From an uncultured Candidatus Saccharibacteria bacterium (GTDB lineage Bacteria > Patescibacteriota > Saccharimonadia > Saccharimonadales > Saccharimonadaceae), in NCBI GenBank assembly GCA_964428955.1, contig CAYSAD010000001.1, positions 19,561 to 83,560 of the forward strand: DNA of 64,000 nucleotides, written 5' to 3'. Shown here one piece after another: positions 1,425 through 64,000 of this stretch (position 1 is its first letter; every line of letters starts with the position of its first letter). Under the pieces are notes generated by a model. The model was not told the origin of the DNA and did not search any database. It worked only from the letters and a program-made list of their open reading frames with translations. A program made the translations under genes and the position numbers.

Positions 1425-1433
1425 TGATATAAT
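1425..1433 (+). promoter_or_regulatory. Extended -10 (TGaTATAAT) 6 nt upstream of the murA ATG; leaderless-type promoter
   Basis: TG at 1425-1426, TATAAT at 1428-1433, ATG at 1440. The intervening GGAGCA is too close to act as an SD. Confidence 0.45.
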
Positions 1434-1439
1434 GGAGCA

Positions 1440-2966
1440 ATGAATAGTGATGACTACAAGTTAAAAATTGGAAAGTTAATCCAAGAAGCCCGACTAACGC
1501 GAAGCATGACTCAGACAGATCTAGCAGTGAAGCTGGCCACCTCGCAAAGTGCCATCAATCGGATTGAAAAAGGTGGTCAGAACATAAGCTTGGAGATGCT
1601 GGCCCGTATCAGCGAGGTGCTTTCGACCAACATCATCACTCTGAATCACAGTGGTACGACTAACTTCAAAGTTCATGGTGGACGGGAACTCTCTGGCGAG
1701 ATCGAAGTCAAAACCAGCAAGAACGCTGCGGTTGGTTTGCTTTGTGCCAGCCTTCTCAATAAAGGCAAAACGACCCTGCGTCGCGTACCACGTATTGAAG
1801 AAGTCAACCGATTAATCGAGGTACTGGGCAGCATCGGTGTCAAAACCCGCTGGATTGGCACAAGCGATCTTGAAATCACCCCCCCGAAACGTCTACAGCT
1901 GGAGAAGATGGATATCACAGCAGCCCGGCGGACTCGTAGTATCATCATGTTCCTGGGACCATTGCTCCATCAATACAAAGAGTTCAAACTTCCTTTTGCT
2001 GGTGGCTGCGACCTTGGTACGCGTACGGTAGAGCCGCACATGTCGGGTTTGACGCCGTTTGGCCTACACGTCGTGGCGACGAACGACTATTATAACGCGA
2101 CGGTTACGCCAAGCGAACCGAATCGGACTATCCTGCTGACGGAACGTGGTGATACGGTTACTGAAAACGTCATCATGGCGGCCGCATTGTACGATGGCAC
2201 GACGATTATCCGCAACGCCAGTCCGAATTACATGGTGCAAGACGTCTGTTTTTTCTTGGAAAAACTCGGTGTTATCATTGACGGCATTGGTACGACTACG
2301 CTCCAGGTTCGCGGTAAGCGATCAATCAATACTGATGTCGACTATGCGCCGAGTGAGGATCCAATCGAAGCTATGAGTTTCGTGGCGGCAGCCATCGTGA
2401 CTAATTCTGAAATTACCATCCGCCGCGTACCAATCGAGTTCATGGAAATCGAACTAGCAGTGCTTGGCAACATGAACCTGGATTACGAACTAGGTAAGGA
2501 ATACGTGGCGCGCAACGGTCATACTCGCCTGGTAGACGTGACGGTGAAAAAATCAAAGCTGATAGCCGCCAAAGACAAGTTGCACAGTATGCCCTTCCCT
2601 GGCGTCAATATGGACAACTTGCCTTTCCTCGGTCTGGTCGCTACGATGGCTAAAGGCCGCAGTCTGTTGCACGACTGGAGTTACGAGAACCGGGCGATTT
2701 ATTTCACCGAACTCACCAAACTGAACGCTCGAATCGAACTCGTCGACCCACACCGCGTTTACATTTCCGGACCAACCAAATGGAAACACGCCGATGTCGT
2801 GGCACCACCAGCCTTACGACCGTCCGTCGTGGTACTCCTAGCTATGTTGGCCGCACCAGGTAGCTCAATGTTGCGCGATGTTTATTCCATCAACCGCGGT
2901 TACGAAGACTTTGCCAATCGCCTGAATTCAATCGGTGCAGATATCGAAACCGTCCAGGAAATCTAG
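1440..2966 (+). CDS. murA: UDP-N-acetylglucosamine 1-carboxyvinyltransferase with an N-terminal XRE-type HTH domain
   Basis: 508 aa. Residues 1-65 (IQEARLTRSMTQTDLAVKLATSQSAINRIEKGGQNISLEMLARI) look like HTH_3. The rest aligns by eye to E. coli MurA, including the Cys115-loop equivalent FAGGCDLGTRTVEPH and the C-terminal INRGYEDF. Confidence 0.9.
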   Translation: MNSDDYKLKIGKLIQEARLTRSMTQTDLAVKLATSQSAINRIEKGGQNISLEMLARISEVLSTNIITLNHSGTTNFKVHGGRELSGEIEVKTSKNAAVGLLCASLLNKGKTTLRRVPRIEEVNRLIEVLGSIGVKTRWIGTSDLEITPPKRLQLEKMDITAARRTRSIIMFLGPLLHQYKEFKLPFAGGCDLGTRTVEPHMSGLTPFGLHVVATNDYYNATVTPSEPNRTILLTERGDTVTENVIMAAALYDGTTIIRNASPNYMVQDVCFFLEKLGVIIDGIGTTTLQVRGKRSINTDVDYAPSEDPIEAMSFVAAAIVTNSEITIRRVPIEFMEIELAVLGNMNLDYELGKEYVARNGHTRLVDVTVKKSKLIAAKDKLHSMPFPGVNMDNLPFLGLVATMAKGRSLLHDWSYENRAIYFTELTKLNARIELVDPHRVYISGPTKWKHADVVAPPALRPSVVVLLAMLAAPGSSMLRDVYSINRGYEDFANRLNSIGADIETVQEI

Positions 2967-2989
2967 TCTTTCTCTATTAATTATGCTAA

Positions 2990-3134
2990 CATTACTACTG
3001 CCAACCATCTTTTAGGTGGCCCCAAAATAACAAACCAAGCCTTGAGGCTGTTTGTGATTTTGAGAGGAGACGTAACGGAAGGTGGCAGCTTTCGAACTTG
3101 TTCGAAAGTGAGAACCTGAAGTGAACGGCGACGA
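2990..3134 (+). other. Structured spacer / possible long 5' leader of tRNA-His
   Basis: Three hairpins: 3000-3020 (GCCAACC/GGTGGC), 3031-3054 (CAAAC-AGCC/GGCT-GTTTG) and 3089-3108 (CTTTCGAAC/GTTCGAAAG). No credible ORF. Confidence 0.25.
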
Positions 3135-7420: not shown

Positions 7421-7782
7421 CCACTAATGAACAACAAAAAACCAACGATCGGCAAGATTGGCACAAGTGGCCAGACAAGCAGACATAAACCACCCACTAT
7501 GACGTACCCAAGTAGCGCAATTGAACCAATTATAATGATGATCAGGCGCACGAATGCTCCGATTACTCGAGAAACCATACGGTCGACGAATGCTCGCCAC
7601 TTTACGCCAAGCGGTCCACTTACTTTTCCGGCCGAGATTTGCCGGAATGGCGCGAACAATGTCGATATCAATTGTTCGATTGAAAAATAATCAACTGCCC
7701 GAGCGATCCGCTGTCGAATCTGCCCCACTTGACGGCGCCAGCCAATACCATACCACCACGAGAGCATACCCACGATAAACAT
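7396..7782 (-). CDS. Small membrane protein co-oriented with and overlapping the AAA+ gene
   Basis: The ORF-track start 7860 is TTG. ATG 7782 (MFIVGMLSWWYG...) has TACAAT 6 nt upstream. Three or four hydrophobic helices. Its 3' end overlaps the downstream AAA+ start. Confidence 0.6.
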   Translation of the reverse strand: MFIVGMLSWWYGIGWRRQVGQIRQRIARAVDYFSIEQLISTLFAPFRQISAGKVSGPLGVKWRAFVDRMVSRVIGAFVRLIIIIIGSIALLGYVIVGGLCLLVWPLVPILPIVGFLLFISGWTPIVWN

Positions 7783-7788
7783 GACCTT

Positions 7789-7794
7789 ATTGTA
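7789..7794 (-). promoter_or_regulatory. -10 hexamer TACAAT 6 nt upstream of ATG 7782 (leaderless-type)
   Basis: Plus-strand ATTGTA at 7789-7794. Spacer AAGGTC. Confidence 0.4.
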
Positions 7795-9854: not shown

Positions 9855-10321
9855 CTTTGGTAACCGTCTTGTTGTTTCTTCAGCTCACTAATCACTTGTT
9901 GGCCGTGGCCAAGTGGCGTCACGCGACCGAAGACTTTTACGACGACGCCATCGGGATTGATAATGAATGTCTTCCTAAGGATGCCTTCTTTACCAAACTG
10001 CTTCTTTCCCCACGCGCCATATGCTTCAATCGTCTTACCTGTACCGTCGACAAGTAATGTGAAATTAAGCGAATGCTTGGCTTTGAATTTCTCATGGCTA
10101 GATGCTGGATCTTTACTGACACCAATAATTTCCGCACCAAGCTGAGCTAAATCATCGCGCGCATCACGCAAACTGCAAGCTTCAATCGTACAACCAGGCG
10201 AATCGTCTTTCGGATAAAAGTAAAGGACAACCCATTTGCCATTGTAGTCCTTCAGTGTGTGTAGCTTACCTGTGTCATCTGTTAAACTAAACTGCGGTGC
10301 GAGATATGGTGGTTGTTTCAT
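9851..10321 (-). CDS. bcp: Thioredoxin-dependent thiol peroxidase (Bcp-type peroxiredoxin)
   Basis: YFYPKDDSPGCTIEACSLRD active-site motif. The ORF-track start 10351 is TTG. ATG 10321 (MKQPPYLAPQF) has TATAAT 6 nt upstream. Confidence 0.9.
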   Translation of the reverse strand: MKQPPYLAPQFSLTDDTGKLHTLKDYNGKWVVLYFYPKDDSPGCTIEACSLRDARDDLAQLGAEIIGVSKDPASSHEKFKAKHSLNFTLLVDGTGKTIEAYGAWGKKQFGKEGILRKTFIINPDGVVVKVFGRVTPLGHGQQVISELKKQQDGYQS

Positions 10322-10327
10322 ATTCTT

Positions 10328-10333
10328 ATTATA
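10328..10333 (-). promoter_or_regulatory. -10 TATAAT 6 nt upstream of the bcp ATG (leaderless-type)
   Basis: Plus-strand ATTATA at 10328-10333. Back-to-back with the divergent promoter at 10369-10374. Confidence 0.45.
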
Positions 10334-10368: not shown

Positions 10369-10374
10369 TATAAT
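10369..10374 (+). promoter_or_regulatory. -10 TATAAT 8 nt upstream of ATG 10383 (leaderless-type)
   Basis: TATAAT at 10369-10374. Spacer AAAAGCTA, no SD. Confidence 0.45.
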
Positions 10375-10382
10375 AAAAGCTA

Positions 10383-11495
10383 ATGTCTGCAAAAAAACTG
10401 TCGTCTCGTATATTGGCGCTTGATCTAATGCGTGGTTATTTTTTGGTCATCATTATTCTTGACCACCTGTTTTGGTACCCGAATGGGCTGGATTGGGTCA
10501 GTGGTCGTGGTGAGTTGTTCGTTAGTGCAGCCGAAGGATTCTTCCTAATTTCTGGCATCGTACTCGGCATCGTGCGCGGGCAAAAACTCATCAATAAGCC
10601 ATTTGCTGTCGGTGCGAAGCTCCTCCTCAAACGAAGTGTACAGCTTTATATCACCAGTGTCGTCCTCATGCTAATTTTCACCCTGCTCGGCTGGTGGTTC
10701 TTCATGAATAATCCTGGTCTAAAACCTGGTATTCGACCACCAAGTGAGGGCTTCTGGAGCGTATTTATCGGCGCACTCGATTATAAATACATTTATGGCT
10801 GGGCAGATTTCCTGAGACTATACGCAATATTCATTTTCGTCAGCCCGTTGGTCCTGTGGTTGCTACGGCGCGGCTGGTGGTATATTGTACTTGGCTTGAG
10901 CGTCGGAACCTATCTACTACTGCCATTTGCTCAAGCTCATACTACGTATACTGACGAATTATTGATGCCGATTACCTGGCAATTGATATTCTTCGGCGGT
11001 TTCGTGATTGGTTTTCACGAGCAACGTATTCGTCGTTTCTGGCAATCATTATCCCATAGATTCCGTCGCATTTTTATGCGAACCGTGTTCGTATTAACCA
11101 CTATCACTCTTGGATTTAATATGATCCTGGCATTTGGTAGTGACCTCTCAAGCAGACTGGGTGCCATCGAAGCCGCTCTTGACCCCTTCTTCATAAAAGA
11201 GACTCTACCACCCGCCCGTATCGCTTTGTTCGCATTGTGGTTCGTAGCTGGTTTTTGGCTTTTTCATCATTATCGTGAGGTTATCAACCGTCGACTCGGT
11301 TGGATATTGTTGCCGTTCGGCATGAACTCACTGTACGTGTATACGATTCATGCCTTCGTGATCTTCTTTGTCCACATGGTCATGCTCAATGCCAGTCCAA
11401 ATATTCTCATCAATATCGTCGGAACACTGCTCGTGCTTGGAATCATTCTACTAGCGGTACGAACCAAGTTCCTGATGAAGATTATTCCACGTTAA
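10383..11495 (+). CDS. OpgC / acyltransferase-3-like polytopic membrane protein
   Basis: 370 aa, about 10 TM helices. The N-terminal LDLMRGYFLVIIILDHL is typical of the OpgC/DUF1624-type acyltransferase superfamily. Confidence 0.55.
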   Translation: MSAKKLSSRILALDLMRGYFLVIIILDHLFWYPNGLDWVSGRGELFVSAAEGFFLISGIVLGIVRGQKLINKPFAVGAKLLLKRSVQLYITSVVLMLIFTLLGWWFFMNNPGLKPGIRPPSEGFWSVFIGALDYKYIYGWADFLRLYAIFIFVSPLVLWLLRRGWWYIVLGLSVGTYLLLPFAQAHTTYTDELLMPITWQLIFFGGFVIGFHEQRIRRFWQSLSHRFRRIFMRTVFVLTTITLGFNMILAFGSDLSSRLGAIEAALDPFFIKETLPPARIALFALWFVAGFWLFHHYREVINRRLGWILLPFGMNSLYVYTIHAFVIFFVHMVMLNASPNILINIVGTLLVLGIILLAVRTKFLMKIIPR

Positions 11496-13492: not shown

Positions 13493-13522
13493 TTGACAAA
13501 CATAGCCGACGCGCTTTAGGCT
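13493..13522 (+). promoter_or_regulatory. Sigma70-like promoter TTGACA-18-TAGGCT, 6 nt upstream of ATG 13529 (leaderless-type)
   Basis: TTGACA at 13493-13498, TAGGCT at 13517-13522, ATG at 13529. Confidence 0.45.
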
Positions 13523-13528
13523 AGACTT

Positions 13529-13978
13529 ATGTCGTCATTTCATCTAGAACCAATGGCCGTCTCGGCAACGCTTCATTGTTTGACCGGCTGCGCCATTGGT
13601 GAAATCATCGGTATGGTTGTCGGAACTGCATTTAATCTTCATAATGTTGTCACTATCATCTTAGCAATCGTACTGGCGTTCATATTTGGCTACGGCCTAT
13701 CAATTCGATCAGTCGTACGTCATGGGATCAGCCTAAGGCGCGCTTTGAAACTCGTACTGGCAGCCGATACCTTGTCTATCGCGACGATGGAATTAGTTGA
13801 TAACGGTGTTGTAGCGCTCATTCCGAACGCGCTTAATGCCACGCTTGGCGACTGGCTGTTTTGGCTTAGCTTAGCACTGTCACTAGTAGCGGCATTCATC
13901 GCCGCCTATCCGGTGAATAATTACCTGCTGTCGCGCGGTAAGGGCCACGCCTTACTGCACGAACACCACCATCACTAG
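13529..13978 (+). CDS. DUF4396-like membrane protein with a C-terminal His-rich tail
   Basis: 149 aa. LHCLTGCAIGEIIGM in the first TM helix (as I recall for DUF4396). Ends HEHHHH. Confidence 0.55.
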   Translation: MSSFHLEPMAVSATLHCLTGCAIGEIIGMVVGTAFNLHNVVTIILAIVLAFIFGYGLSIRSVVRHGISLRRALKLVLAADTLSIATMELVDNGVVALIPNALNATLGDWLFWLSLALSLVAAFIAAYPVNNYLLSRGKGHALLHEHHHH

Positions 13979-16031: not shown

Positions 16032-16468
16032 ATCGCCACCTTTGGTGCGCTCAGTTCATTAACCTCAAGTAGGCGCTCGGTTTCACTTGGTGAAGTAAAA
16101 CGAATTTGTAACCGTTTCGCGGGCAAGACATTCTCGGCAATAGCCGCCCACTCAATGACCGTCACGACGCGCGAATCGCTAATTGATTCTGCCAAGTCGT
16201 GCGCCATAATCCCCGTATCGTGTAGCCGGTAAAAATCATAGTGGGCCAGCTCCAAACCGTCACGCGCTGAATAAACACGGCTAATCGTGAAGCTCGGACT
16301 TTGGATGTCTTCGTTGATGCCAAGCCCCAGTCCAATTCCCTTAGTAAGTGTGGTTTTACCGGCACCAACATCACCGACCAACTCTACTACTTCACCGCCG
16401 ACAAATGAACGACCAAGTTTCTCACCAAACGCCTGCATCGCCACAGCGCTTTCTATCTGTATTGTCAT
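16028..16468 (-). CDS. tsaE: tRNA t6A biosynthesis ATPase TsaE
   Basis: P-loop GDVGAGKTTLTKGI followed by SPSFTI. ATG 16468 was chosen because the longer ORF-track start would run into divergent pilB. Confidence 0.85.
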   Translation of the reverse strand: MTIQIESAVAMQAFGEKLGRSFVGGEVVELVGDVGAGKTTLTKGIGLGLGINEDIQSPSFTISRVYSARDGLELAHYDFYRLHDTGIMAHDLAESISDSRVVTVIEWAAIAENVLPAKRLQIRFTSPSETERLLEVNELSAPKVAM

Positions 16469-16475
16469 ATAGATA

Positions 16476-16484
16476 AGTATACCA
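16476..16484 (-). promoter_or_regulatory. Extended -10 (TGgTATACT) 7 nt upstream of the tsaE ATG (leaderless-type)
   Basis: Plus-strand AGTATACCA at 16476-16484. Confidence 0.45.
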
Positions 16485-22106: not shown

Positions 22107-22112
22107 TATACT
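22107..22112 (+). promoter_or_regulatory. -10 TATACT 6 nt upstream of ATG 22119 (leaderless-type)
   Basis: TATACT at 22107-22112. Spacer GATAGT. Confidence 0.4.
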
Positions 22113-22118
22113 GATAGT

Positions 22119-22715
22119 ATGCTCGTACGTAACGATCAGTTGCAAGATACACCGGTCATGAGCCTACAGACCGGCACTGAACTGGCCCGTACCAAACTGC
22201 CTATTATCGATCCACGTAATCTTACCATCGTGGCCTACGAAGTCGACGGTCCACTGCTCGACGTCAAACCTTCAATTCTGCGGATTGCCGACGTACGCGA
22301 GCTGTCCGATATAGGCATGATTGTCGACTCCAGCGACGAGTTTATCACACCCAATGACGTCATTAAAATAAAAGAAGTGTACAATCTGCATTTTCCACTT
22401 CTAAGTCTCGCCGTCATAGATGAACGCAAACGAAAGCTCGGCAAAGTTGACAGCTATACAGTAGAAATGGGTAGTTTCGTTATCCAACAGATTTCGGTAC
22501 GCCGACCGCTACTAAAAAGTCTGAGTGATGCCGAGTTATTGATTCACCGCTCACAAATCATTGAAATAAATGATACGACAATTATCGTTAAAAGTATCAC
22601 GAAAGAAGCCAAAGACCCCGTACCGGAGAATGTCCGTGCCTACGTCAATCCATTTCGCGGCACACCAGGTAAAGCCCAACCCGAAACTATTAATAATAGC
22701 CGCGACGACGATTAA
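22119..22715 (+). CDS. Hypothetical protein, possibly a tandem PRC-barrel
   Basis: 198 aa. Two similar beta-rich halves (VMSLQTGTELARTK..., LGKVDSYTVEMGSFVIQQI...) are reminiscent of PRC-barrel/YlmC-like domains. Weak by-eye call. Confidence 0.4.
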   Translation: MLVRNDQLQDTPVMSLQTGTELARTKLPIIDPRNLTIVAYEVDGPLLDVKPSILRIADVRELSDIGMIVDSSDEFITPNDVIKIKEVYNLHFPLLSLAVIDERKRKLGKVDSYTVEMGSFVIQQISVRRPLLKSLSDAELLIHRSQIIEINDTTIIVKSITKEAKDPVPENVRAYVNPFRGTPGKAQPETINNSRDDD

Positions 22716-24785: not shown

Positions 24786-24794
24786 TGGTATAAT
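24786..24794 (+). promoter_or_regulatory. Extended -10 (TGgTATAAT) 8 nt upstream of the pilin ATG (leaderless-type)
   Basis: TG at 24786-24787, TATAAT at 24789-24794, ATG at 24803. No SD in AGAGCCTA. Confidence 0.5.
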
Positions 24795-24802
24795 AGAGCC
24801 TA

Positions 24803-25225
24803 ATGAAACAACGTGGGTTTACAGTTATCGAACTACTGGTGGTGACGGCATTTTTGATTTTCGCTGGAATTTTATTCTTCGTTCAGAAAAATAATGTCGA
24901 AGTTGCCGGTCGCGATAACGAACGTAAAACCGCCATCAATGCCATATACTATAGCCTAGAAAAAGCCTACTATAGTGAGCACAGTTATTATCCATCTCAG
25001 GTTGATGAGACAATCCTACCAACGGTCGACCCTGATTTATTCACCGATCCAAACGGCGTGAAACTCGGTCAAACCAATGAGACAATTGGTGACCAGCAAG
25101 TACCAGTTCAGTCCGATTATCGCTACGAACCGACTAATTGTGATAACGACAAATGCAAGAGTTATACCCTACGAGCTGACTTGGAAAAAGAAGCCGACTA
25201 CGTCAAAACCAGTCTACACCACTAG
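24803..25225 (+). CDS. pilA: Type IV pilin (prepilin N-terminal cleavage/methylation domain)
   Basis: MKQRG/FTVIELLVV class III signal peptide with Glu at +5 and a hydrophobic alpha1-N helix. Two C-terminal Cys (CDNDKC). Confidence 0.88.
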   Translation: MKQRGFTVIELLVVTAFLIFAGILFFVQKNNVEVAGRDNERKTAINAIYYSLEKAYYSEHSYYPSQVDETILPTVDPDLFTDPNGVKLGQTNETIGDQQVPVQSDYRYEPTNCDNDKCKSYTLRADLEKEADYVKTSLHH

Positions 25226-25226: not shown

Positions 25227-25952
25227 CTATTCGACGGCGCGACCAAGCTTAAAGGCTTCGACGGCATTGTTCAACAGGGCAATCTGCTCTTTCGGCCGCC
25301 ACACGTAGTGAAACCGGTAGGTCGTTTCGTCACCCTGAGTCGAAAGACGAATTGTACCATAGTCAAACAACACTTGAATAAATCCGTTTTGCCGGAAACT
25401 GGCATCCTCGATATTCTCCAAGCTAACCGTCTGTTCGCGCTTATTAAATAGGCTGGTTTGAATATTCTGTATGACACTTTCATTAGTGAGAAAGAATTTA
25501 TTATTCACATACACCCAGACAGCTACATAGCCACCGATAGCGAACAGTAGCAGAAACAAAAACCCGACCAACATGATGTCACCGGTACGTGGCAAGCTAA
25601 TATTAGTAGACGTTGTTAGAGAGTCGGTCATCGTCGGGTACAATGCCAGTATGATGATGACTATTATCATCAATAAAGCCGTTATAAAAATTGGAACGAT
25701 CAATCCGATCGGGTGACGGCGAACGGCACTAATAACGTGTTCGCCTTCGCTCAGATTCAAAGACGGATAAAGTTTCATCGAAGCATCGTGCTTGGCCTTC
25801 AGTTCATCACTGACGACCAATTTTTTTACCTCAAGTGGTCTGGTTACGTGAACGTTGTCCATGTCTACTTTGGCTTGCACTGGCGGATGAGCATAAAGCG
25901 GCTGGCCATCGGCGTCATAGGCAACTGGCTGATCGTAATCATCTGTTTTCAT
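25227..25952 (-). CDS. Membrane protein with bacterial PH (bPH_2/YdbT-like) domain
   Basis: 241 aa. Two central TM helices followed by a region resembling the DUF304/bPH_2 fold. Weak family call. Confidence 0.5.
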   Translation of the reverse strand: MKTDDYDQPVAYDADGQPLYAHPPVQAKVDMDNVHVTRPLEVKKLVVSDELKAKHDASMKLYPSLNLSEGEHVISAVRRHPIGLIVPIFITALLMIIVIIILALYPTMTDSLTTSTNISLPRTGDIMLVGFLFLLLFAIGGYVAVWVYVNNKFFLTNESVIQNIQTSLFNKREQTVSLENIEDASFRQNGFIQVLFDYGTIRLSTQGDETTYRFHYVWRPKEQIALLNNAVEAFKLGRAVE

Positions 25953-25958
25953 AGCACT

Positions 25959-25964
25959 AGTATA
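25959..25964 (-). promoter_or_regulatory. -10 TATACT 6 nt upstream of ATG 25952 (leaderless-type)
   Basis: Plus-strand AGTATA at 25959-25964. Confidence 0.4.
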
Positions 25965-25972
25965 ACATTACG

Positions 25973-27004: not shown

Positions 27005-27576
27005 CGCTTCAACGCTTCGGTTACGCGCTCGGCGGTCGATAAGTCAGTCGAGACACCTTCGAGTGCTTTGGTTGCGTCATTCAAGCTATAGCCAAGGGCC
27101 ATCAACGCTTCGAGTGCTTCGTCATTACCAGGTAGCATCTGCGAATTGCCAATAATATCGTTGTTTGTCCGCAGCGCCAAGCCGACTTTATCAGAAAGAT
27201 CAATTGCGACACGCTCGGCAGTTTTCTTGCCAACACCGCTGGCCCGCGCAATAAAAGCCGTATCGCTACTGGCGATGGCATTTCGAACCGTCTCACTGAC
27301 GCCAAGACTCAAAATCGCCAGTGCTGCTTTTGGTCCGATGCCCTGTACGCCGATTAAAAGTTCGAATAGTTTCTTGGCCGCCAGATTTGAAAAGCCATAC
27401 AGCTCTTGTGACTGTTCGCGGATATGGTGATACGTATAAAATTTAACCTCATCGTGTAGCAATGCCCGCTCGAAATCCCCCGCTGGTACTTGTACTTCAT
27501 AGCCAACGCCACGAACGTCAACGATGACAGAACTTCCAAATTTTTCGGCGACCACGCCAGCAACATGCGCTATCAT
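27001..27576 (-). CDS. ruvA: Holliday junction DNA-binding protein RuvA
   Basis: 191 aa. MIAHVAGVV...GVGYEV OB-fold start and HhH motifs ([21 protein letters not shown]). ATGA overlap with ruvB. Confidence 0.93.
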
Positions 27577-27585
27577 TATAGCCCT

Positions 27586-27594
27586 AGTATACCA
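27586..27594 (-). promoter_or_regulatory. Extended -10 (TGgTATACT) 9 nt upstream of the ruvA ATG
   Basis: Plus-strand AGTATACCA at 27586-27594. Confidence 0.4.
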
Positions 27595-38019: not shown

Positions 38020-38027
38020 CTGTTATT

Positions 38028-38056
38028 AGTATAAAAAATTAGCACTCAAATGTAAA
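38028..38056 (-). promoter_or_regulatory. Promoter TTTACA-17-TATACT for dnaJ, with the -35 inside the CIRCE spacer and the ATG 8 nt after the -10
   Basis: Minus strand: TTTACA (38056-38051), 17 nt, TATACT (38033-38028), AATAACAG, ATG 38019. Confidence 0.55.
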
Positions 38057-38065
38057 GAGTGCTAA
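38039..38065. promoter_or_regulatory. CIRCE operator (HrcA binding site), perfect
   Basis: TTAGCACTC-N9-GAGTGCTAA, matching the consensus exactly. Confidence 0.92.
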
Positions 38066-38082
38066 TTTCTGTCCTGGCTTGA

Positions 38083-38806: not shown

Positions 38807-38812
38807 TATACT
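38807..38812 (+). promoter_or_regulatory. -10 TATACT 8 nt upstream of ATG 38821 (leaderless-type)
   Basis: TATACT at 38807-38812. Spacer TTAGCGTA. Confidence 0.4.
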
Positions 38813-38820
38813 TTAGCGTA

Positions 38821-39930
38821 ATGAAACCTTTCGTTCGCATCGTCGGTCGCATCGCGGGAACCTTGAGAGCCGAGTACCGTCAGCTGGCTAATCGCTATTT
38901 TGGCAAGATCGAACGGTTCGAGGGTAACGCCCGCGAAATTTGCCAGCAAATCGTCGAAAAACTCTGGGAAGGCGATTTCTATCGCACCAGTTTGGGCCAC
39001 TTTGATTTTTTCTGGATGCGTGATTTTGGCACAGTCGCTGAATCGCTCGTAAAAACCGGCTACAAAAAACGTGTACTCCACACCTTAAAGTGGGCGTTGT
39101 TACATTATCGCCGAGCAAATACAATCACAACCTGTATCGATAAAGCCGGCAACTGTTTCAATGCACCTGGTCATGCCGTCGATAGTCTGCCGTGGCTACT
39201 GCACTGTTTAGTGGTGAGCAACTACGACCTCAACAAGGCAGAGCGGCTATTCCTCGAAGACCAACTTAAAGCCTATTGCCGAAAATACCTGGACACTACC
39301 GGACACGTCCGCCCAATTAAATTCGCCGAGCAACGCGACGCTGTTATTTACGATCGAAGCGCCTACGCGGTCAGTCTGGTTGGCCACATGGCTTGGTGTG
39401 TGGGACAACTCGAACTGAAGGGCTTTCCCTACTCGCTTCAGAAATACCAAAAAGAATTGATCAGTCGCTACTGGAATGGCCAATATTTCAATGCCGATCG
39501 TACCACCGACGCCTTCAGTGCCGAATGTGCGCTATTTCCCTTTTTCCTCGGCGTCATAGAAGACGCGGCGCTGGCAAGCGCCACTTTCGATTACATCACC
39601 GACAACGGTTACGATCAGCCGTTTCCTATGATTTACACGAAACAACCAGAAGCATTCAAATATCATTGGTGGATGACCGCTCCATTCATGCCCAAATACG
39701 AAGGTGAGACCCTATGGAGCTGGCATGGATTATTTTATCTGCACAGTTTACGTCGCTACAACCGACCAGAATTTAAGCAGCAACGCCAGCGCTTTGCCAA
39801 AGGTATGATCGAAGAACACGGCACGTTCCCAGAAATGCTCAATAAAGATGGCAGCTGGTACTACGCGCCGATCTATCGCGGTGACCCAGGTATGGTGTGG
39901 GCGGCGCTCTACGTAGAATTGTCTGAATAA
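38821..39930 (+). CDS. Hypothetical protein, possibly an (alpha/alpha)6-barrel glycoside-hydrolase-like fold
   Basis: 369 aa, soluble, rich in W, Y and F. FWMRDFG and later W-rich motifs recall GH15/GH63/GDE-type barrels. Weak by-eye call. Confidence 0.4.
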   Translation: MKPFVRIVGRIAGTLRAEYRQLANRYFGKIERFEGNAREICQQIVEKLWEGDFYRTSLGHFDFFWMRDFGTVAESLVKTGYKKRVLHTLKWALLHYRRANTITTCIDKAGNCFNAPGHAVDSLPWLLHCLVVSNYDLNKAERLFLEDQLKAYCRKYLDTTGHVRPIKFAEQRDAVIYDRSAYAVSLVGHMAWCVGQLELKGFPYSLQKYQKELISRYWNGQYFNADRTTDAFSAECALFPFFLGVIEDAALASATFDYITDNGYDQPFPMIYTKQPEAFKYHWWMTAPFMPKYEGETLWSWHGLFYLHSLRRYNRPEFKQQRQRFAKGMIEEHGTFPEMLNKDGSWYYAPIYRGDPGMVWAALYVELSE

Positions 39931-42176: not shown

Positions 42177-42548
42177 TTACAAAGTTTTCAACCAATCCTC
42201 ACCTTCAGGGATGGTGTGGAACGCCCTATATTTATCACTTTGGCCAGCGAGTTTTGTCATAAAGTTGACGACGGTTTGCATCGCGGCGTTAGTACCTATG
42301 ATCGCCGTTGGCACGGCGTCCTTTTTCATGATTTGAGTTGCTTCATTTCGGGCGTCAGCATCGTAGCCAATATTATCACTAAGATCAACGAGGCATTTTG
42401 GTGTTAGTCCTTTGGTCTTGATTTCCTCTGCGTACTTCATAAACGTGGTGACAGTGTCACGGACAACCCATTTATCTTGATCGCCGTGACAGATAACGTA
42501 GATAAGATCATCTTTTACGAAAACTTCATTTGCCTTTTTATTTGCCAT
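42177..42548 (-). CDS. Hypothetical protein between grpE and dnaK, possibly STAS/SpoIIAA-like
   Basis: 123-aa soluble ORF with its own TATACT 6 nt upstream of the ATG. The family call is a weak impression only. Confidence 0.55.
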   Translation of the reverse strand: MANKKANEVFVKDDLIYVICHGDQDKWVVRDTVTTFMKYAEEIKTKGLTPKCLVDLSDNIGYDADARNEATQIMKKDAVPTAIIGTNAAMQTVVNFMTKLAGQSDKYRAFHTIPEGEDWLKTL

Positions 42549-42554
42549 AAACGC

Positions 42555-42560
42555 AGTATA
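42555..42560 (-). promoter_or_regulatory. -10 TATACT 6 nt upstream of ATG 42548 (leaderless-type)
   Basis: Plus-strand AGTATA at 42555-42560. Confidence 0.4.
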
Positions 42561-42623
42561 GCACGATGTTAAGAGACGAGGTCAGCTGTTAACAACAACC
42601 TTTTCACATCACGAATAAGTACA

Positions 42624-43159: not shown

Positions 43160-43867
43160 TTATAAAACCTCTTCTAGCATGGCGCCAGCATGGCGCACCA
43201 AGCGCATCACCTTACCGTAACTTTGACGGGTTGGCCCAAGCACGCCGATGTAACTTTTATCCGAATATGGTGAGCGGAACCGACTAATAATGAGCGTCGA
43301 ACCGCTGGTTTTACCGATCGGATTCTCGCTGCCGATAAAAACGTTGAGCGGTTCGTTCGGTGCGGCTTCGCGGAGCCATGGTTCAAGATTATCGAGTAAA
43401 CGAGCCACCGTCTGGGCATGATTGCCTTGTAAAAATTCAGGCTGCGAAAAAAGATTACCAATGCCACTCATGTAGAGTTCGTCGCCAATAGTCGCGATGC
43501 CGAGATTCTGTGTTAAATCAACCAAGCTATCGACGGCGCTTCGAATCGCCCGATCGGCTCGGTCACCATGAGTATTGACGCGTGCCGCAATCGCCCTCGC
43601 ACCGCGATCGATGGCCGGCAAGTCACTAGTTTCGGCTTCGGTCAGGTTGTTGACGTACAGACGGTAGCCTTTATCGGTCGGAATCCGACCGGCGCTGGTA
43701 TGTGGCTGCGCAATCAATTCAAGTTCTTCGAGTTTTGCCATTTCCGAACGGATCGTGGCACTGCTGACACCGAATAATTTGGCCAGCGTTACGCTCCCCA
43801 CCGGTACGGCCACTTCAGCGTATTGTTCAACGATAGCGACAAGAATTGCAATTTGACGTTCGGTCAT
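43160..43867 (-). CDS. hrcA: Heat-inducible repressor HrcA (compact, 235 aa)
   Basis: N-terminal winged helix (RQIAILVAIVEQY...PVGSVTLAKLFGVSSATIRSEMAKLEELELI...HTSAGRIPTDKGYR). About 100 aa shorter than canonical HrcA. Confidence 0.88.
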   Translation of the reverse strand: MTERQIAILVAIVEQYAEVAVPVGSVTLAKLFGVSSATIRSEMAKLEELELIAQPHTSAGRIPTDKGYRLYVNNLTEAETSDLPAIDRGARAIAARVNTHGDRADRAIRSAVDSLVDLTQNLGIATIGDELYMSGIGNLFSQPEFLQGNHAQTVARLLDNLEPWLREAAPNEPLNVFIGSENPIGKTSGSTLIISRFRSPYSDKSYIGVLGPTRQSYGKVMRLVRHAGAMLEEVL

Positions 43868-43873
43868 GCTTTT

Positions 43874-43901
43874 ATTATAACAAATTTTGGCACTCTTTCA
43901 A
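43874..43901 (-). promoter_or_regulatory. Promoter TTGAAA-16-TATAAT for hrcA, with the -35 inside the CIRCE spacer and the ATG 6 nt after the -10
   Basis: Minus strand: TTGAAA (43901-43896), 16 nt, TATAAT (43879-43874), AAAAGC, ATG 43867. Confidence 0.55.
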
Positions 43902-43913
43902 CTTGAGTGCTAA
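43887..43913. promoter_or_regulatory. CIRCE operator upstream of hrcA
   Basis: TTGGCACTC-N9-GAGTGCTAA, one mismatch. It abuts the stop codon of the upstream gene. Confidence 0.88.
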
Positions 43914-44651
43914 TTATATGATGTCAGGATAGTACTCGGTAATGTCCCGTAACAGCTGTTTCGCTATATCATATGCCCCTTTGTTGTGAAGTTCATGCTG
44001 CTCACCGCGAACATAACCATCAACCGTTGAAACGACTTCATCTAGACTGTCGTTCACGACGAACACAAATCTTTCGCTCGCGAGTACCGTTCTAAGGATC
44101 TTTATCGCCGTTTTAACACGATTGTGAAGCTCTTCACTAGTCATCACTTCGCGTCTCTTGAGGCGCTTCATCCATTCGTTGAAACTCGGCGGAATAACAA
44201 ACATGAATAGTGTGTCAGGTTTCAGTGCGGCAATTGCATCGGTACCACCCACATCGACTTCGTTAATCGGAACTTTACCACTCGCCCGCGCTTTGACGAT
44301 TTCCCGGACATTGTTCCCGGATACTTGTTGATTATGAATCAGTTCCGCCTCGAGAAATTGTCCGTGCCTGAGATCGTCTAGGATTGCCTCCTCCGATCGA
44401 AAATTATATGCCACACCGTCTTGCTCGAGAGTACCATTACGTACTTTCGGAGGTCGTGTTGTGTCTGAGACAATGAAGTGATATCTGTCTGTCTGTACCA
44501 GCTTATCGATGATCGTATTACGGCCACTTCCTGACACACCAAGCAGTATTACCAGTGGCATGTCGGCAAGTACTTTGAGCGTTTCTTCGGACGGCCGGTA
44601 ATCTTTCAGCTCTTCAACGAATTGGTCACGTAATCGTAAGGTAACTTCCAT
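43914..44651 (-). CDS. Guanylate-kinase-like protein with a non-canonical P-loop
   Basis: 245 aa. Aligns by eye to Gmk (SDTTRPP.., FLEAE.., FVIPPS.., VVNDSLDEVV), but Walker A reads GVSGSGRNT instead of GxSGxGKS/T. Confidence 0.65.
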   Translation of the reverse strand: MEVTLRLRDQFVEELKDYRPSEETLKVLADMPLVILLGVSGSGRNTIIDKLVQTDRYHFIVSDTTRPPKVRNGTLEQDGVAYNFRSEEAILDDLRHGQFLEAELIHNQQVSGNNVREIVKARASGKVPINEVDVGGTDAIAALKPDTLFMFVIPPSFNEWMKRLKRREVMTSEELHNRVKTAIKILRTVLASERFVFVVNDSLDEVVSTVDGYVRGEQHELHNKGAYDIAKQLLRDITEYYPDII

Positions 44652-44657
44652 AGATTG

Positions 44658-44663
44658 ATTATA
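44658..44663 (-). promoter_or_regulatory. -10 TATAAT 6 nt upstream of ATG 44651 (leaderless-type)
   Basis: Plus-strand ATTATA at 44658-44663. Confidence 0.4.
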
Positions 44664-50860: not shown

Positions 50861-51037
50861 CTAACCAAACCGTCTGGATAAAACGACCGCCAGCCAAATG
50901 CCGACAATACCACCGACGAATGCACCGATTACACCCCATAAGTCAAATATACTGTAGTCACCAAATAGCATCGGCACAGCACCGCCAGCGGTCATCCCGC
51001 CAACCATTCCAAACATAACCGCACTCTTACTTGTCAT
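50861..51037 (-). CDS. Small Gly-rich membrane protein, hypothetical
   Basis: 58 aa from ATG 51037 (MTSKSAVMFGMVGGMTAGG...). The longer ORF-track form would overlap dinB. Confidence 0.45.
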   Translation of the reverse strand: MTSKSAVMFGMVGGMTAGGAVPMLFGDYSIFDLWGVIGAFVGGIVGIWLAVVLSRRFG

Positions 51038-51044
51038 TAGGTTT

Positions 51045-51050
51045 ATTATA
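51045..51050 (-). promoter_or_regulatory. -10 TATAAT 7 nt upstream of ATG 51037 (leaderless-type)
   Basis: Plus-strand ATTATA at 51045-51050. Confidence 0.4.
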
Positions 51051-57900: not shown

Positions 57901-58595
57901 TCAATGTGAACATGGAGCTTTGATTTGACTGTGTCGTATACGACACAAAAATCGTCAAGTTTAGCTATTTGCCTACGGGCGCGTAAAAACTTGCCGTATG
58001 AATGGAAATTCTCTCGAGCGAATTGCATCAATTGATGGAAAGCTGGATATTCACTCATAGCATCGACTAAACTCTCAATCTTCCCAGCATATCGCGCAGC
58101 ATCTTCGTCACTGGTAAATTGGTAATCCCTGAAAGCTTCGTTCGGATATGAACCTTCTACCGAAAGGACGTTCTGTAGCGATTCAAGCTTCTCAACGAAA
58201 CATTTGAACTGCAGACTGACTTCCTTCTTGTCCGAAACGTTCATGCGCTCGAACTGACCAGCTTCCAATAATTTCGCAAGATTAAAATGCTCGAACGCGG
58301 CGACAATGTCGCGATCATCGTTAGTTACATCTTTAGCAGCTTCAAACAGCGGGTCGGTTGCTTCGCCTGGTCGCACACCACCACCCAATTCATTATAGGC
58401 TTCGCTATAGTGCCTGTCTAAAGCTTGGCGTGCCATCAAACGGGAATACATCGCTTTTCGTTGAGCCTCAAATGGCGCCGGGTACTCGTAGCGTACCGCG
58501 TTCGGATTATCATCATACTCCGGCACAGCTACAACAAGCGGTGATTTATCGTCACCGGGAAGATCGAATGGCAACATTTCTTGCGATTCACTCAT
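57894..58595 (-). CDS. Hypothetical acidic soluble protein (orphan)
   Basis: 233 aa, no TM helix, no motif recognised. Has its own TTGACT-17-TATAAA promoter 6 nt from the ATG. Confidence 0.6.
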   Translation of the reverse strand: MSESQEMLPFDLPGDDKSPLVVAVPEYDDNPNAVRYEYPAPFEAQRKAMYSRLMARQALDRHYSEAYNELGGGVRPGEATDPLFEAAKDVTNDDRDIVAAFEHFNLAKLLEAGQFERMNVSDKKEVSLQFKCFVEKLESLQNVLSVEGSYPNEAFRDYQFTSDEDAARYAGKIESLVDAMSEYPAFHQLMQFARENFHSYGKFLRARRQIAKLDDFCVVYDTVKSKLHVHIEK

Positions 58596-58601
58596 GCTAA
58601 A

Positions 58602-58630
58602 TTTATAGCATAAGTATCTTAAAAAGTCAA
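58602..58630 (-). promoter_or_regulatory. Promoter TTGACT-17-TATAAA, 6 nt upstream of ATG 58595 (leaderless-type)
   Basis: Minus strand: TTGACT (58630-58625), 17 nt, TATAAA (58607-58602). Confidence 0.5.
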
Positions 58631-59765: not shown

Positions 59766-60521
59766 TTATTCCCTCAAGCCTTTGCCGGTCAAGTCGATAA
59801 AGACATCTTCCAAATTCGCCTGTTCAACATGTTGCTCCTTTTTGAAGCCGCGTTTAAGTAACGCTTTGATCAGATTCTTCGGCGTATCAATAGCGACAAT
59901 CTTGCCAGCATCCATCACGGCGATGCGATCGCATAATATCTCAGCCTCATCCATATAGTGGGTCGTCATGATAACGCTAATACCCCGATCACGGACTTTC
60001 TTAATGAGCTCCCATAGATTTCGTCTGGCCTGCGGATCAAGGCCAGTGGTTGGCTCGTCTAGGAAGAAGACTTTCGGTCCATGAACCAATGCGGTCGTAA
60101 TCGATAGGCGCTGTTTTTGTCCACCTGACAATTGCTCAACGTAGGCATTAGCCTTTTCTTCTAAGTCAACATCACGTAGAAATTCCATTGCATCAACGTG
60201 TTCACCATAGGCGGCGGCGAACATTTCAATCACTTCGGTCAGTTTTGTTTTATCTTGGAAGGCCGGCGCTTGCGGCTGGACCCCAATGATATATTTGATT
60301 TTCTGTGGGTTTTCCGCGACATCGATACCGTCAATTTTAGCGCTACCACCGTCAATCTCACGCAATGTTTCAATCATTTCCAGTGTAGTCGTCTTACCGG
60401 CACCATTAGGGCCAAGGATGCCGAAGATTTCCCCTTTTTTAACTGAGAAGCTAATACCATCAACAGCCATTTTGTCGTCATAGCGCTTCTTGAGATCTTT
60501 TACTTCTACCATATTACTCAT
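59766..60521 (-). CDS. ABC transporter ATP-binding protein (DrrA/CcmA-like)
   Basis: 251 aa. GPNGAGKTT, LSGGQKQRL, FLDEPTTGLD. Confidence 0.93.
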   Translation of the reverse strand: MSNMVEVKDLKKRYDDKMAVDGISFSVKKGEIFGILGPNGAGKTTTLEMIETLREIDGGSAKIDGIDVAENPQKIKYIIGVQPQAPAFQDKTKLTEVIEMFAAAYGEHVDAMEFLRDVDLEEKANAYVEQLSGGQKQRLSITTALVHGPKVFFLDEPTTGLDPQARRNLWELIKKVRDRGISVIMTTHYMDEAEILCDRIAVMDAGKIVAIDTPKNLIKALLKRGFKKEQHVEQANLEDVFIDLTGKGLRE

Positions 60522-60529
60522 AGGTTAAA

Positions 60530-60535
60530 ATTATA
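60530..60535 (-). promoter_or_regulatory. -10 TATAAT 8 nt upstream of ATG 60521 (leaderless-type)
   Basis: Plus-strand ATTATA at 60530-60535. Confidence 0.4.
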
Positions 60536-61604: not shown

Positions 61605-62825
61605 TCAGCGACGGTAGAGGGCAAACCGCGGCGTGGCGATGATCAAAGTCACTACTGCAGCAATCGCGAAAAATATCTTCAGAGAAAACGCGCCATCGTG
61701 CCACATAAACAACGAACCAAGACCGATTGCCCCGATCGCTGCTCCGAAATTAACGATCATTTCGATCAGGAATAGATATTCTATCCGCTTGCCAGAGTTA
61801 TCGGCCGTATCAAACATGCCACGTGTAAAAGCCATTGTGTAACCAGTCGTTGCCGCCTCATTAATAATATTTACCATAACTACGCCGATTGGCGTCACGA
61901 CGAACGGCCGAAAAAGGTGCGTCAGACTGTTCATGGATACGCCGAATCGAAGTAGATCACCACCGCGCCGACGATCGATCAGTCGACCATATGCATATGA
62001 CGCAAGTAACGCTACGAATATAGTTACCGATGTCACGAAACCGACTTCAGCATACACCGCGTCGCTCGAGCCGTCGAACACCACCACCGCCATGAACAAT
62101 GTCCAGGCCGTACCGGTAGTAAAGACGTCGAAGCCAATCGAACCCTCTGCTACCAGGCTACGCCAGGTTGCCCGCCACGGAAAACCGGAAAAATCAGGTC
62201 GCCGATGTATCCGCGTCGGCTCGCCAGTTCTAAACAATGGCACAGCCGATAGCATGAATAATATCGCTGAAACGACCATCACCAGTTCCGGCCCGAACCA
62301 AAAGGCTATCGCGCCACCGATGACTGGACTGAGGCCCGTGGCAACTTTTTCAAAGATATTCATGTAGCCGATCTCCTTGCCGGCGTTGAGTATATTCTTA
62401 ACCTTTGAGAAATCAACCATATAGCAAAGATCGTTCAGACTGCCCGAGAAAGCTTGCAAAACACACCAGATAATCAACGCATACAGTCCATACTGTTCTA
62501 CCGCCACGAACGGTAAAAACAACATGGCTACCGCTGAGACGATATTGCTGACAAGCGTGCCGTGTTTTGGACCAAAATGGGCGGCAATAAGTGCTGACGG
62601 CCAAGAAAATGGTATCTTTAGGATATAGAAGCCAGCCCAGAAAAAGGCGATGAAAGCTAGGCTATAACCTTCTTGATACAAGTAAATCGACGTGAAGACC
62701 GACACCATTCGAAGAGCGAATATCCGCATCGTTCGCGAAGCGTAGAGCTCGGCGACTTCACTGAAGGTGGCGTATCGCCAGAAATGACGTCGCAGTAGCA
62801 ACCGATGAATAATGCCTTGTATCAT
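61605..62825 (-). CDS. MFS-type transporter
   Basis: 406 aa, about 12 TM helices in a 6+6 arrangement. Confidence 0.75.
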   Translation of the reverse strand: MIQGIIHRLLLRRHFWRYATFSEVAELYASRTMRIFALRMVSVFTSIYLYQEGYSLAFIAFFWAGFYILKIPFSWPSALIAAHFGPKHGTLVSNIVSAVAMLFLPFVAVEQYGLYALIIWCVLQAFSGSLNDLCYMVDFSKVKNILNAGKEIGYMNIFEKVATGLSPVIGGAIAFWFGPELVMVVSAILFMLSAVPLFRTGEPTRIHRRPDFSGFPWRATWRSLVAEGSIGFDVFTTGTAWTLFMAVVVFDGSSDAVYAEVGFVTSVTIFVALLASYAYGRLIDRRRGGDLLRFGVSMNSLTHLFRPFVVTPIGVVMVNIINEAATTGYTMAFTRGMFDTADNSGKRIEYLFLIEMIVNFGAAIGAIGLGSLFMWHDGAFSLKIFFAIAAVVTLIIATPRFALYRR

Positions 62826-62870
62826 GATGCCCTTTTACTTACGTGTTTGTTATACGGTTCTTTTCTTTAG

Positions 62871-62876
62871 TATACT
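62871..62876 (+). promoter_or_regulatory. -10 TATACT 6 nt upstream of the murC ATG (leaderless-type)
   Basis: TATACT at 62871-62876. Spacer ACAGAT, ATG at 62883. Confidence 0.45.
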
Positions 62877-62882
62877 ACAGAT

Positions 62883-64000
62883 ATGAATATATACTTTTCC
62901 GGAATCGGTGGTGTCGGAATCGGCCCGTTGGCGGAAATTGCGCAGGGTGCTGGCTACCAGGTGCAAGGTTCGGATAGACAGGCAAGTTCGGTAACTCGTG
63001 AACTAATTGAGCGCGGTATTGCAGTAGAGTTGTCACAAGACGGCTTCTTTTTGGAAGCTTGCCACGCAGCTAGTCCGCTCGACTGGTTCGTCTACACTGC
63101 TTCCCTGCCAGCTGATCACCCAGAACTGCTCTTAGCAAAAAAGCTCGGCATCAAAACCGCCAAACGCGACGAATTGCTCGCCCACATCATCACCGAAAAA
63201 AACCTCAAGCTCATCGCCGCGGCCGGTACGCACGGCAAGACAACCACAACCGGCATGCTGGTTTGGACATTGCAACAGCTCGGCACTCCCGTCAGTTATT
63301 CGATTGGCACAACGATTGGTTTTGGCCCCAGCGGTAAATTTGATCCCGCCAGCGAATATTTTATCTACGAATGCGACGAATTCGACCGCAATTTCCTGCA
63401 CTTCTCGCCGTTTCTTTCGCTCGTCACTTCGATTGATTATGACCATCCTGACACCTACCCGACCGAGGCTATGTATCTCGATGCCTTCAAGGAGTTCGGC
63501 GAAAAGTCTGAACAGCTTATTGCATGGCAAAACCAGCACGGCGAACTCTTCGCCAATCATCCGGATGCCTGGTTACTCGACGCACCGCTCGAAACCAAAC
63601 TAGCTGGCGCCCATAATCGCCGCAACGCCACACTAGTACTCAAGGCCATCGAAAAATTAGGCATTGCTGGTGATGCGCTTCCCACGATAGAGCGTTTCCC
63701 TGGTACTAATCGCCGGTTCGAAAAACTGGCCGATAATCTTTACAGCGATTACGGCCATCACCCGGTCGAGATCGCCGCCACCCTGCAGATGGCTCGCGAA
63801 CTGTCCGACCATGTCGTTCTCGTCTATCAACCGCACCAGAACCTTCGTCAGCATGAAATCAGAAGTCTGTACACTGATTGTTTCGAGCTGGCTGAAAAGG
63901 TGTACTGGCTACCGACCTATCTCAGCCGTGAAGACCCGAACTTGACAATTCTTACACCAGAAGAATTGACCGAAGGTATCACGAATAAGTCTACCGTTCG
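62883..64000 (+). CDS. murC: UDP-N-acetylmuramate--L-alanine ligase (MurC/Mpl family), 3' end outside the window
   Basis: Own translation: MNIYFSGIGGVGIGPLAEIAQGAGYQVQGSD...AAAGTHGKTTTTGML...YECDEFDRNF...DYGHHPVEI. It runs open to the window end and is absent from the ORF track for that reason. Confidence 0.88.
   Translation, partial: MNIYFSGIGGVGIGPLAEIAQGAGYQVQGSDRQASSVTRELIERGIAVELSQDGFFLEACHAASPLDWFVYTASLPADHPELLLAKKLGIKTAKRDELLAHIITEKNLKLIAAAGTHGKTTTTGMLVWTLQQLGTPVSYSIGTTIGFGPSGKFDPASEYFIYECDEFDRNFLHFSPFLSLVTSIDYDHPDTYPTEAMYLDAFKEFGEKSEQLIAWQNQHGELFANHPDAWLLDAPLETKLAGAHNRRNATLVLKAIEKLGIAGDALPTIERFPGTNRRFEKLADNLYSDYGHHPVEIAATLQMARELSDHVVLVYQPHQNLRQHEIRSLYTDCFELAEKVYWLPTYLSREDPNLTILTPEELTEGITNKSTV

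Follow-up and report, generated by a model that had tools for sequence, protein, structure and literature searches.

Start-adjacent -10 hexamers and apparently leaderless genes in a Saccharibacteria genome

Introduction

Genomes in which a Pribnow box lies directly before the start codon of many genes have been described under two names. GeneMarkS-2 classifies them as group C, with the box placed 6-8 nucleotides (nt) from the start, as laid out in the passages of Lomsadze et al. (2018; PMC6028130) dealing with this group, and Zheng et al. (2011; PMC3160421) described TA-led genes. Both are reported mainly from Actinobacteria, e.g., Mycobacterium tuberculosis and Streptomyces, and from Deinococcus-Thermus (PMC3160421 and the same passages of PMC6028130). 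Here, we follow up a first-pass annotation of 64,000 nt from an uncultured Candidatus Saccharibacteria bacterium (assembly GCA_964428955.1, contig CAYSAD010000001.1, positions 19,561 to 83,560). In this stretch, hereafter called the window, 25 apparently leaderless genes carry a hexamer of mostly the TATAAT or TATACT type 6-9 nt before their ATG.

The window has a GC content of 49%, and only four groundwater metagenome runs, all of one study, contained 99-100% of its sampled words. The best relatives of its PBP1A are encoded in Saccharibacteria (TM7) genomes, at no more than 66% identity, other phyla of the candidate phyla radiation (CPR) being more distant. Judged by these sequence relationships, the window is part of a metagenome-assembled genome of Saccharibacteria (TM7, Patescibacteria/CPR), from an ultrasmall bacterium of groundwater. 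A full-text literature search returned, in the passages it covered and reference lists aside, no paper that ties leaderless transcription or translation to Saccharibacteria, Patescibacteria or the CPR. A promoter survey comprises 188 TM7x start sites derived from RNA-seq, and its excerpted sections make no comment on leaders (PMC12641261). Saccharibacteria are transformable, and the respective genetics paper made use of the tuf and rpsJ promoters, whose signals it left undescribed (PMC10633639). The mechanism as such is not new; what we report corresponds to the known group C type, in a lineage where it appears to be undescribed.

Results

The first-pass annotation had listed about 25 loci with a TATAAT/TATACT-type hexamer 6-9 nt ahead of an ATG. 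Each of the 25 was verified in coordinate, hexamer and spacer by printing the 45 nt upstream of the start. The annotation had further suggested looking for a positional peak of such TA-rich hexamers. This test was run on the window and 171 loci, in place of a genome-wide analysis; the statistics are based on the window, 80 loci of species-representative genomes (L001-L080), 80 metagenome loci (L092-L171) and an E. coli control (L091). The strict motif TATA[AC]T was located on both strands, and its distance to ATG was counted at every spacer from 0 to 39, independent of the gene list. Of the 93 strict sites in the window, 24 precede an ATG at a spacer of 6-9, and 21 of these 24 open a reading frame of at least 80 amino acids (aa). 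The remaining spacers host 0-2 ATGs each, about 0.6 per spacing, corresponding to 2.4 expected sites at spacers 6-9 and a Poisson probability of about 2e-13. The peak at 6-9 nt is sharp. When only ATGs with an in-frame stop no more than 30 codons upstream were considered, it remained roughly 10-fold relative to the background. The most frequent spacer is 6 nt, found at 12 of the 25 window sites and at 62 of 114 sites in the window plus the relatives' loci L001-L023, and 11 of the 25 window sites have spacers of 8-9 nt.

The spacing peak is essentially restricted to ATG. Within the window and L001-L023, the counts at spacers 6, 7, 8 and 9 were 62, 26, 15 and 11 for ATG, compared with one each for GTG and 1, 0, 1 and 7 for TTG. 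TA-rich hexamers are common, with 402 loose matches in the window, and the pattern could in principle reflect chance, base composition or mis-assigned start codons. Such an artefact would have to account for a roughly 10-fold enrichment that is specific to both spacers 6-9 and ATG, whereas 50 kb of E. coli K-12, counted in the same way, contained no strict site and one loose site against 0.8 expected. With start codons fixed by Pfam coordinates and ortholog N-termini, and a layout that is kept across genomes, this explanation is effectively refuted by the spacing counts, the ATG specificity, the conservation and the E. coli control, and we assign it next to no probability. The start-adjacent -10 pattern is thereby confirmed as real. 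Since a scan of the window with looser hexamers provided no additional credible site, the list of 25 can be considered essentially complete.

Regarding the start codons, 20 of the 25 listed ATGs are the 5'-most possible ATG, GTG or TTG of their open reading frame (ORF). In RuvA, RuvC, DnaJ, TsaE, Bcp, OpgC, MurC, HrcA and the DUF4396 protein, the distance from the proposed methionine to the Pfam domain is 1-9 residues. At tsaE (TGg-TATACT, 7 nt; 16466..16484, minus strand), for instance, positions 2-126 of the TsaE profile correspond to residues 6-132. The first-pass annotation had regarded several predicted starts as mere TTG or GTG extensions. For tsaE, bcp and ruvC, its corrections agree with both Pfam coordinates and ortholog N-termini, by which the longer forms (TTG 16546 in the case of tsaE) are excluded. 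The pilin ATG is preceded by an in-frame stop two codons upstream and followed by a canonical prepilin leader (MKQRG|FTVIELL). In near-identical oral metagenome contigs (L081-L090), public calls of the pilin near 12748-13179 give either 143 aa or 135 aa. A start at TGgTATAAT-N7-ATG in the oral relative L025 leads to a pilin of 132 aa beginning with MKQNG|FTVIELL, so that the differing public calls exemplify start mis-annotation at leaderless genes.

For nine window proteins, orthologs were located by tblastn in the loci of relatives and their aligned starts inspected, counting distinct upstream contexts with a -10 that matches at least 5 of 6 positions and lies 5-10 nt before an ATG. Such a -10 was kept in 102 of 180 distinct contexts, 61 of the 102 carrying TGn, within flanking upstream DNA that is otherwise unalignable. 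The layout is nearly invariant at the type IV pilin (TGg-TATAAT, 8 nt; 24786..24805, plus strand; 15 of 16 contexts), at PBP1A (TGc-TATAAT, 9 nt; 29867..29887, minus strand, 20 nt after ruvC; 33 of 44), at a 159-aa membrane protein (TGa-TATACT, 6 nt; 35359..35376, minus strand; 9 of 11) and at dnaJ (3 of 3, with the operator described below). A 198-aa protein following the pil cluster (TATACT, 6 nt; 22107..22121, plus strand) has it in 10 of 15. Three genes on the minus strand whose window arrangement is shared by orthologs show an SD-type (Shine-Dalgarno, SD) upstream sequence instead in some relatives: ruvA (TGg-TATACT, 9 nt; 27574..27594; RuvA_N covering residues 1-61), ruvC (TATACT, 9 nt; 30358..30375; 17-nt gap, RuvC profile from residue 3) and the gene of a bPH-domain protein of 241 aa (TGt-TATACT, 6 nt; 25950..25967; also supported by Pfam). 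The SD-type forms of ruvC occur where it directly follows another gene. All GTG starts among the orthologs fall into the non-leaderless class, but this is not independent evidence for the ATG restriction, since only ATG was scored for a start-adjacent -10.

In the window, ruvB follows ruvA and is coupled to it via an ATGA overlap. A different arrangement was observed in L025, an oral Saccharibacteria locus, where ruvA and ruvB are separated by a GmrSD-type gene and a 286-aa ORF (13051-16026) and a TATAAT-N6-ATG of its own opens ruvB. A contig of run X6 joins position 13051 of L025 to 16019 via 24 other letters, including the SD-like GAAGGGA before ruvB, which shows the X6 strain to be without this insert. 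Four RNA-like runs for L025 consist of assembler contigs 90-95% alike, from which no 5' ends could be read, and a search for RNA runs covering the window or its closest relative L001 found none.

To extend the analysis toward other lineages, start-proximal sites were counted per 10 kb; the expectation was taken from other spacings, and a TATAAT-like -10 consensus was assumed for all organisms. The window reached 2.97 sites per 10 kb (19 found, 4.2 expected), three Saccharibacteria groups 1.9-2.9, four Microgenomates loci 2.0 (14 found, 3.2 expected), and a Ryanbacteria locus with its close relatives 2.3-2.8, compared with 0.20 for E. coli. A set of 73 Parcubacteria-like metagenome contigs yielded 0.53 sites per 10 kb (47 found, 29 expected), a value to be read with the reservation that their true -10 consensus may differ. 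By this sequence measure, Saccharibacteria in general show the trait strongly, and the Parcubacteria-like sample shows it weakly; small samples suggest its presence in other CPR lineages. A uniform CPR-wide trait is ruled out by the 4-6 times lower site number of the Parcubacteria-like contigs.

A promoter role of the hexamer was weighed against a role in translation, in which it would serve polycistronic mRNAs as a ribosome-binding site other than an SD or as an enhancer of translation, like the motif of the Bacteroidetes type of GeneMarkS-2 (group B). Several features speak against the latter. TGn is enriched immediately 5' of the hexamer, at 12 of the 25 sites versus 1 in 16 expected (p = 9e-9). 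These sites show the sequence hallmarks of extended -10 promoters, with TG one base 5' of the hexamer and an apparently dispensable -35, and are predicted promoters. Boxes matching the -35 consensus in at least 5 of 6 positions exist at 16% of the sites versus 2.3% of random positions, mostly alongside a weak -10 or at sites lacking TGn, while 60% of the sites match in no more than 3 of 6. Examples are the gene of a DUF4396 protein (ATG at 13529), which combines a perfect TTGACA, 18 nt from the hexamer, with a weak TAGGCT and a 6-nt spacer (13493..13531, plus strand); the gene of a 233-aa protein (ATG at 58595) with TTGACT, 17 nt, TATAAA and 6 nt (58593..58630, minus strand); and dnaJ, which has no TGn. 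A two-hexamer promoter scan was uninformative for the sites, since most of these promoters are without a -35. Hexamer variation among window sites and orthologs is confined to positions 3-5 (TATAAT, TATACT, TACAAT, TAAAAT). A ribosome-binding element is also disfavored by the most frequent form being TATACT, whose fifth base is C, and by the constancy of T1, A2 and T6.

Two genes on the minus strand provide operators in promoter register, again at odds with a ribosomal role. Inverted repeats of the CIRCE type (controlling inverted repeat of chaperone expression) lie directly upstream of the -10 at dnaJ (38028-38066) and hrcA (43874-43905), with the -35 hexamers TTTACA and TTGAAA, respectively, inside the 9-nt spacer of the repeat. 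At dnaJ, the complete signal (38017..38066) consists of CIRCE (TAGCACTC-N9-GAGTGCTAA), 17 nt between TTTACA and TATACT, and 8 nt to the ATG, with the DnaJ domain starting from residue 5. At hrcA (43865..43905), a CIRCE-like operator with TTGAAA is followed after 16 nt by TGt-TATAAT and after 6 nt by the ATG, the DNA-binding domain beginning at residue 2. This placement over the -35 is the arrangement that would be expected for HrcA repression. The HrcA protein itself (43160-43867, minus strand) has 235 aa and matches the Pfam C-terminal-domain profile at positions 95-215 only; HrcA of model bacteria comprises about 340 aa, making the window protein shorter. An additional CIRCE was noticed ahead of orf59-dnaK.

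Nine of the sites lie within divergent spacers of 57-109 nt. These tiny regions must contain promoters, since each flanking gene requires one, which further argues against a ribosome-binding element. The clearest case is bcp and opgC, whose opposite-strand starts are 61 nt apart (10322-10382), each with its own TATAAT: 6 nt before bcp of the AhpC/TSA type (10319..10333, minus strand; Pfam AhpC-TSA from residue 8) and 8 nt before the OpgC-type acyltransferase gene (10369..10385, plus strand; OpgC profile from residue 9). Comparable pairs are found at 62825/62883 (57 nt), the latter start being that of murC (TATACT, 6 nt; 62871..62885, plus strand; Mur_ligase from residue 3), and at 16468/16528 (59 nt). 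Divergent spacers also host TATACT 8 nt before the gene of a 369-aa protein (38807..38823, plus strand; 103-nt spacer) and TGa-TATAAT 6 nt before the gene of an HTH_3-MurA fusion of 508 aa (1425..1442, plus strand; 67 nt from the divergent glyA). In this fusion (1440-2966, plus strand), one ORF comprises an HTH_3/XRE domain (residues 14-64) and an EPSP_synthase fold (79-495); a DNA-binding module joined to MurA, the first enzyme of peptidoglycan synthesis, is unusual.

Furthermore, the same motif, often with TGn, is located 12-45 nt upstream of genes equipped with their own SD (glyA, recA, yebC, grpE and orf59-dnaK), and genes inside operons rely on an SD or on overlapping stop and start codons and not on the hexamer, neither of which fits a ribosome-binding element. 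Taken together, the sequence features support the hexamers acting as sigma-70 -10 elements and not as ribosome sites.

The gene-start table comprised 67 starts, and 69 genes after two small genes had been added. For 23 of the 67, the closest strong -10 is 6-9 nt away, and for another 20 it is 12-45 nt away, the latter forming a leadered class with short predicted leaders. An SD motif was found at none of the 23 genes with a start-adjacent -10 versus 26 of the 44 others (Fisher p = 5e-7). This exclusivity supports the coexistence of two initiation modes proposed in the first-pass annotation, and the strong GGAGG motifs it had named before 13419, 15473, 38717, 42075 and 60862 are all present. 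The start-adjacent type accounts for 25 of 69 genes (36%) and about 55% of the recognisable promoters, figures referring to the window only; the density in the relatives' loci is similar.

The remaining start-adjacent signals of ordinary strength are distributed over the minus strand. TGn-bearing forms precede comEC (TGt-TATACT, 6 nt; 34112..34129; Pfam and orthologs), a PAP2 phosphatase gene (TGc-TATAAT, 8 nt; 34710..34729; Pfam) and the gene of a 123-aa protein (TGc-TATACT, 6 nt; 42546..42563). TATACT is located 9 nt before the gene of an LTD-domain surface protein of 483 aa (31827..31844; Pfam). TATAAT is located 6 nt before gmk (44649..44663), 14 nt past the lepA stop, and 8 nt before the gene of an ABC-transporter ATPase (60519..60535; Pfam). 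Elsewhere in the window, three tRNA-Met(CAT) genes were noticed within 4 kb (54011-57858).

Discussion

The evidence, i.e., TGn, the exclusion of SD motifs and the spacing kept at orthologous starts, supports the first-pass annotation in regarding these genes as apparently leaderless. We consider it very probable that the window represents a Saccharibacteria genome whose recognisable transcription units are leaderless in about half of the cases. Where transcription begins and how the mRNAs are translated, as we infer it from sequence, would follow from a sigma-70-type -10 (TATAAT/TATACT) placed 6-9 nt ahead of the ATG; roughly every second of these elements is of the extended TGn type, and most are without a -35. 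RNA polymerase would start on the A of the ATG at spacers of 6-7 nt, or 1-3 nt upstream of it at spacers of 8-9 nt. Translation of the resulting SD-less mRNA would begin at the 5'-terminal AUG, with direct 70S or IF2-dependent initiation suggested by analogy with other bacteria, while operon-internal genes and first genes with short leaders (-10 at 12-45 nt) would use a GGAGG-type SD. Translation via a 5'-terminal AUG is established for other bacteria; for the window, the occurrence of the spacing peak at ATG but not at GTG or TTG lends it indirect support.

The canonical start is the seventh base after the -10, according to the relevant passage of the promoter survey (PMC12641261), so that the modal spacer of 6 nt places +1 on the A of the ATG. 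At spacers of 8-9 nt, however, most sites have purines 7-8 nt after the hexamer, and leaders of 1-3 nt are probably produced there in place of a strictly 5'-terminal AUG. This can be generalized to an alternative in which the promoters are real, but most transcripts start a few bases upstream and have leaders of 1-5 nt, in which case translation might rely on features besides the 5'-terminal AUG. Besides the 11 of 25 sites at these longer spacers, the excerpted sections of the survey favor it by reporting an unusually variable distance between -10 and transcription start site in N. lyticus TM7x, for start sites derived from RNA-seq (PMC12641261). With the modal spacer speaking for a start on the A, we regard such a general upstream shift as unlikely. 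Leaders of up to 5 nt conventionally count as leaderless, so that this alternative would refine and not replace the leaderless interpretation.

Several observations nevertheless weigh against a leaderless interpretation of all 25 genes. A spacer of 9 nt lies at the edge of sigma-70 start selection, and the four genes concerned are more likely to carry leaders of 1-3 nt. Weaker signals stand at four sites: 13529 with its TAGGCT matching in 3 of 6 positions, 58595 with TATAAA, 7782 and 51037. At 7782, TACAAT stands 6 nt before the gene of a 128-aa membrane protein (7780..7794, minus strand) in an 81-nt divergent spacer, with neither TGn nor a -35. At 51037, TATAAT stands 7 nt before an unvalidated 58-aa ORF (51035..51050, minus strand). 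This ORF (50861-51037, minus strand; MTSKSAVMFGMVGG...) is Gly-rich and hydrophobic, without a Pfam match, and represents a putative membrane-protein gene between two longer genes. Finally, 16 of the 25 sites lie 14-134 nt after a same-strand gene, and intrinsic terminators were not enriched, with 18 found versus 18.4 expected from shuffled sequence in a scan that included 22000-40000. In consequence, read-through transcripts carrying these ATGs internally must also exist, and nested transcripts with a common 3' end and extensive read-through are likely. Within 22000-40000, gaps of only 14-28 nt separate same-strand genes that have promoters of their own.

The proximity to same-strand genes and the lack of terminator enrichment are also what a ribosome-binding element in polycistronic mRNAs would lead one to expect. 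Such a role would moreover gain from the unusual ribosomes of the CPR, which are reduced and have a shortened bS1, anti-SD loss being found only in some Parcubacteria (PMC9297842). Against the promoter features, divergent spacers, operators and SD use outlined above, we nonetheless hold a purely translational hexamer to be very improbable, and favor -10 elements of leaderless genes that in part lie within longer transcripts.

Beyond the window, we see somewhat better than even chances that leaderless initiation from an extended -10 joined to ATG is ancient, selectively maintained and numerically dominant for first cistrons throughout Saccharibacteria, that it may reach some other CPR lineages such as Microgenomates and Ryanbacteria, and that it is non-uniform over the CPR. 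If true, part of the CPR would constitute a third major leaderless-rich bacterial group, after Actinobacteria and Deinococcus-Thermus. It would stand out for its strict use of ATG and for promoters confined to gaps of 14-60 nt, and leaderless initiation could be connected with the reduced ribosome of the CPR. A lineage with some half of its transcription units bypassing the SD would then offer a natural system to study leaderless translation in relation to ribosome simplification, and its ancestry. In practical terms, TGnTATAAT-N6-ATG as a putatively complete native expression signal suggests a design for minimal cassettes in Saccharibacteria genetics. Gene callers expecting an SD misplace starts in such genomes, as seen here for tsaE, bcp and ruvC and in oral relatives for the pilin.

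In comparison with described systems, the window shares with group C and TA-led genomes a Pribnow box 6-8(-9) nt before operon-first genes, namely those without an SD, and the retention of the SD at internal and leadered genes. Two of the features that define group C are found here as well, namely a -10 at about 6-10 nt of first genes that lack an SD and the SD used elsewhere. The share seen in the window may also place its genome in the range of the described ones, where a quarter to half of the transcription units or more are affected and a genome-wide share above about 20-25% of genes or operons is expected. In contrast to them, the organism belongs to Saccharibacteria/CPR and not to the high-GC actinobacteria, its GC content being about 49% and its genome tiny. 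Its predicted promoters are largely of the extended -10 type (TGn) with little -35, and they reside in same-strand gaps of 14-28 nt and divergent spacers of 57-61 nt. Its spacing peak includes ATG only, whereas mycobacteria also use GTG at leaderless starts. Extended -10 sigma-70 promoters (TGnTATAAT) of Gram-positives and E. coli resemble the window sites in combining TGn and a near-consensus -10 with a weak or missing -35; they differ in that the motif here, as part of predicted promoters, is systematically fused to the start codon. Group B genomes of the Bacteroidetes (Fibrobacteres-Chlorobi-Bacteroidetes group) likewise have an A/T-rich motif near the start and no SD at those genes. There, however, the motif precedes all genes, including operon-internal ones, inside leadered mRNAs, an arrangement that the window does not show: its internal genes have an SD, and its motif is accompanied by TGn, -35 boxes and operators.

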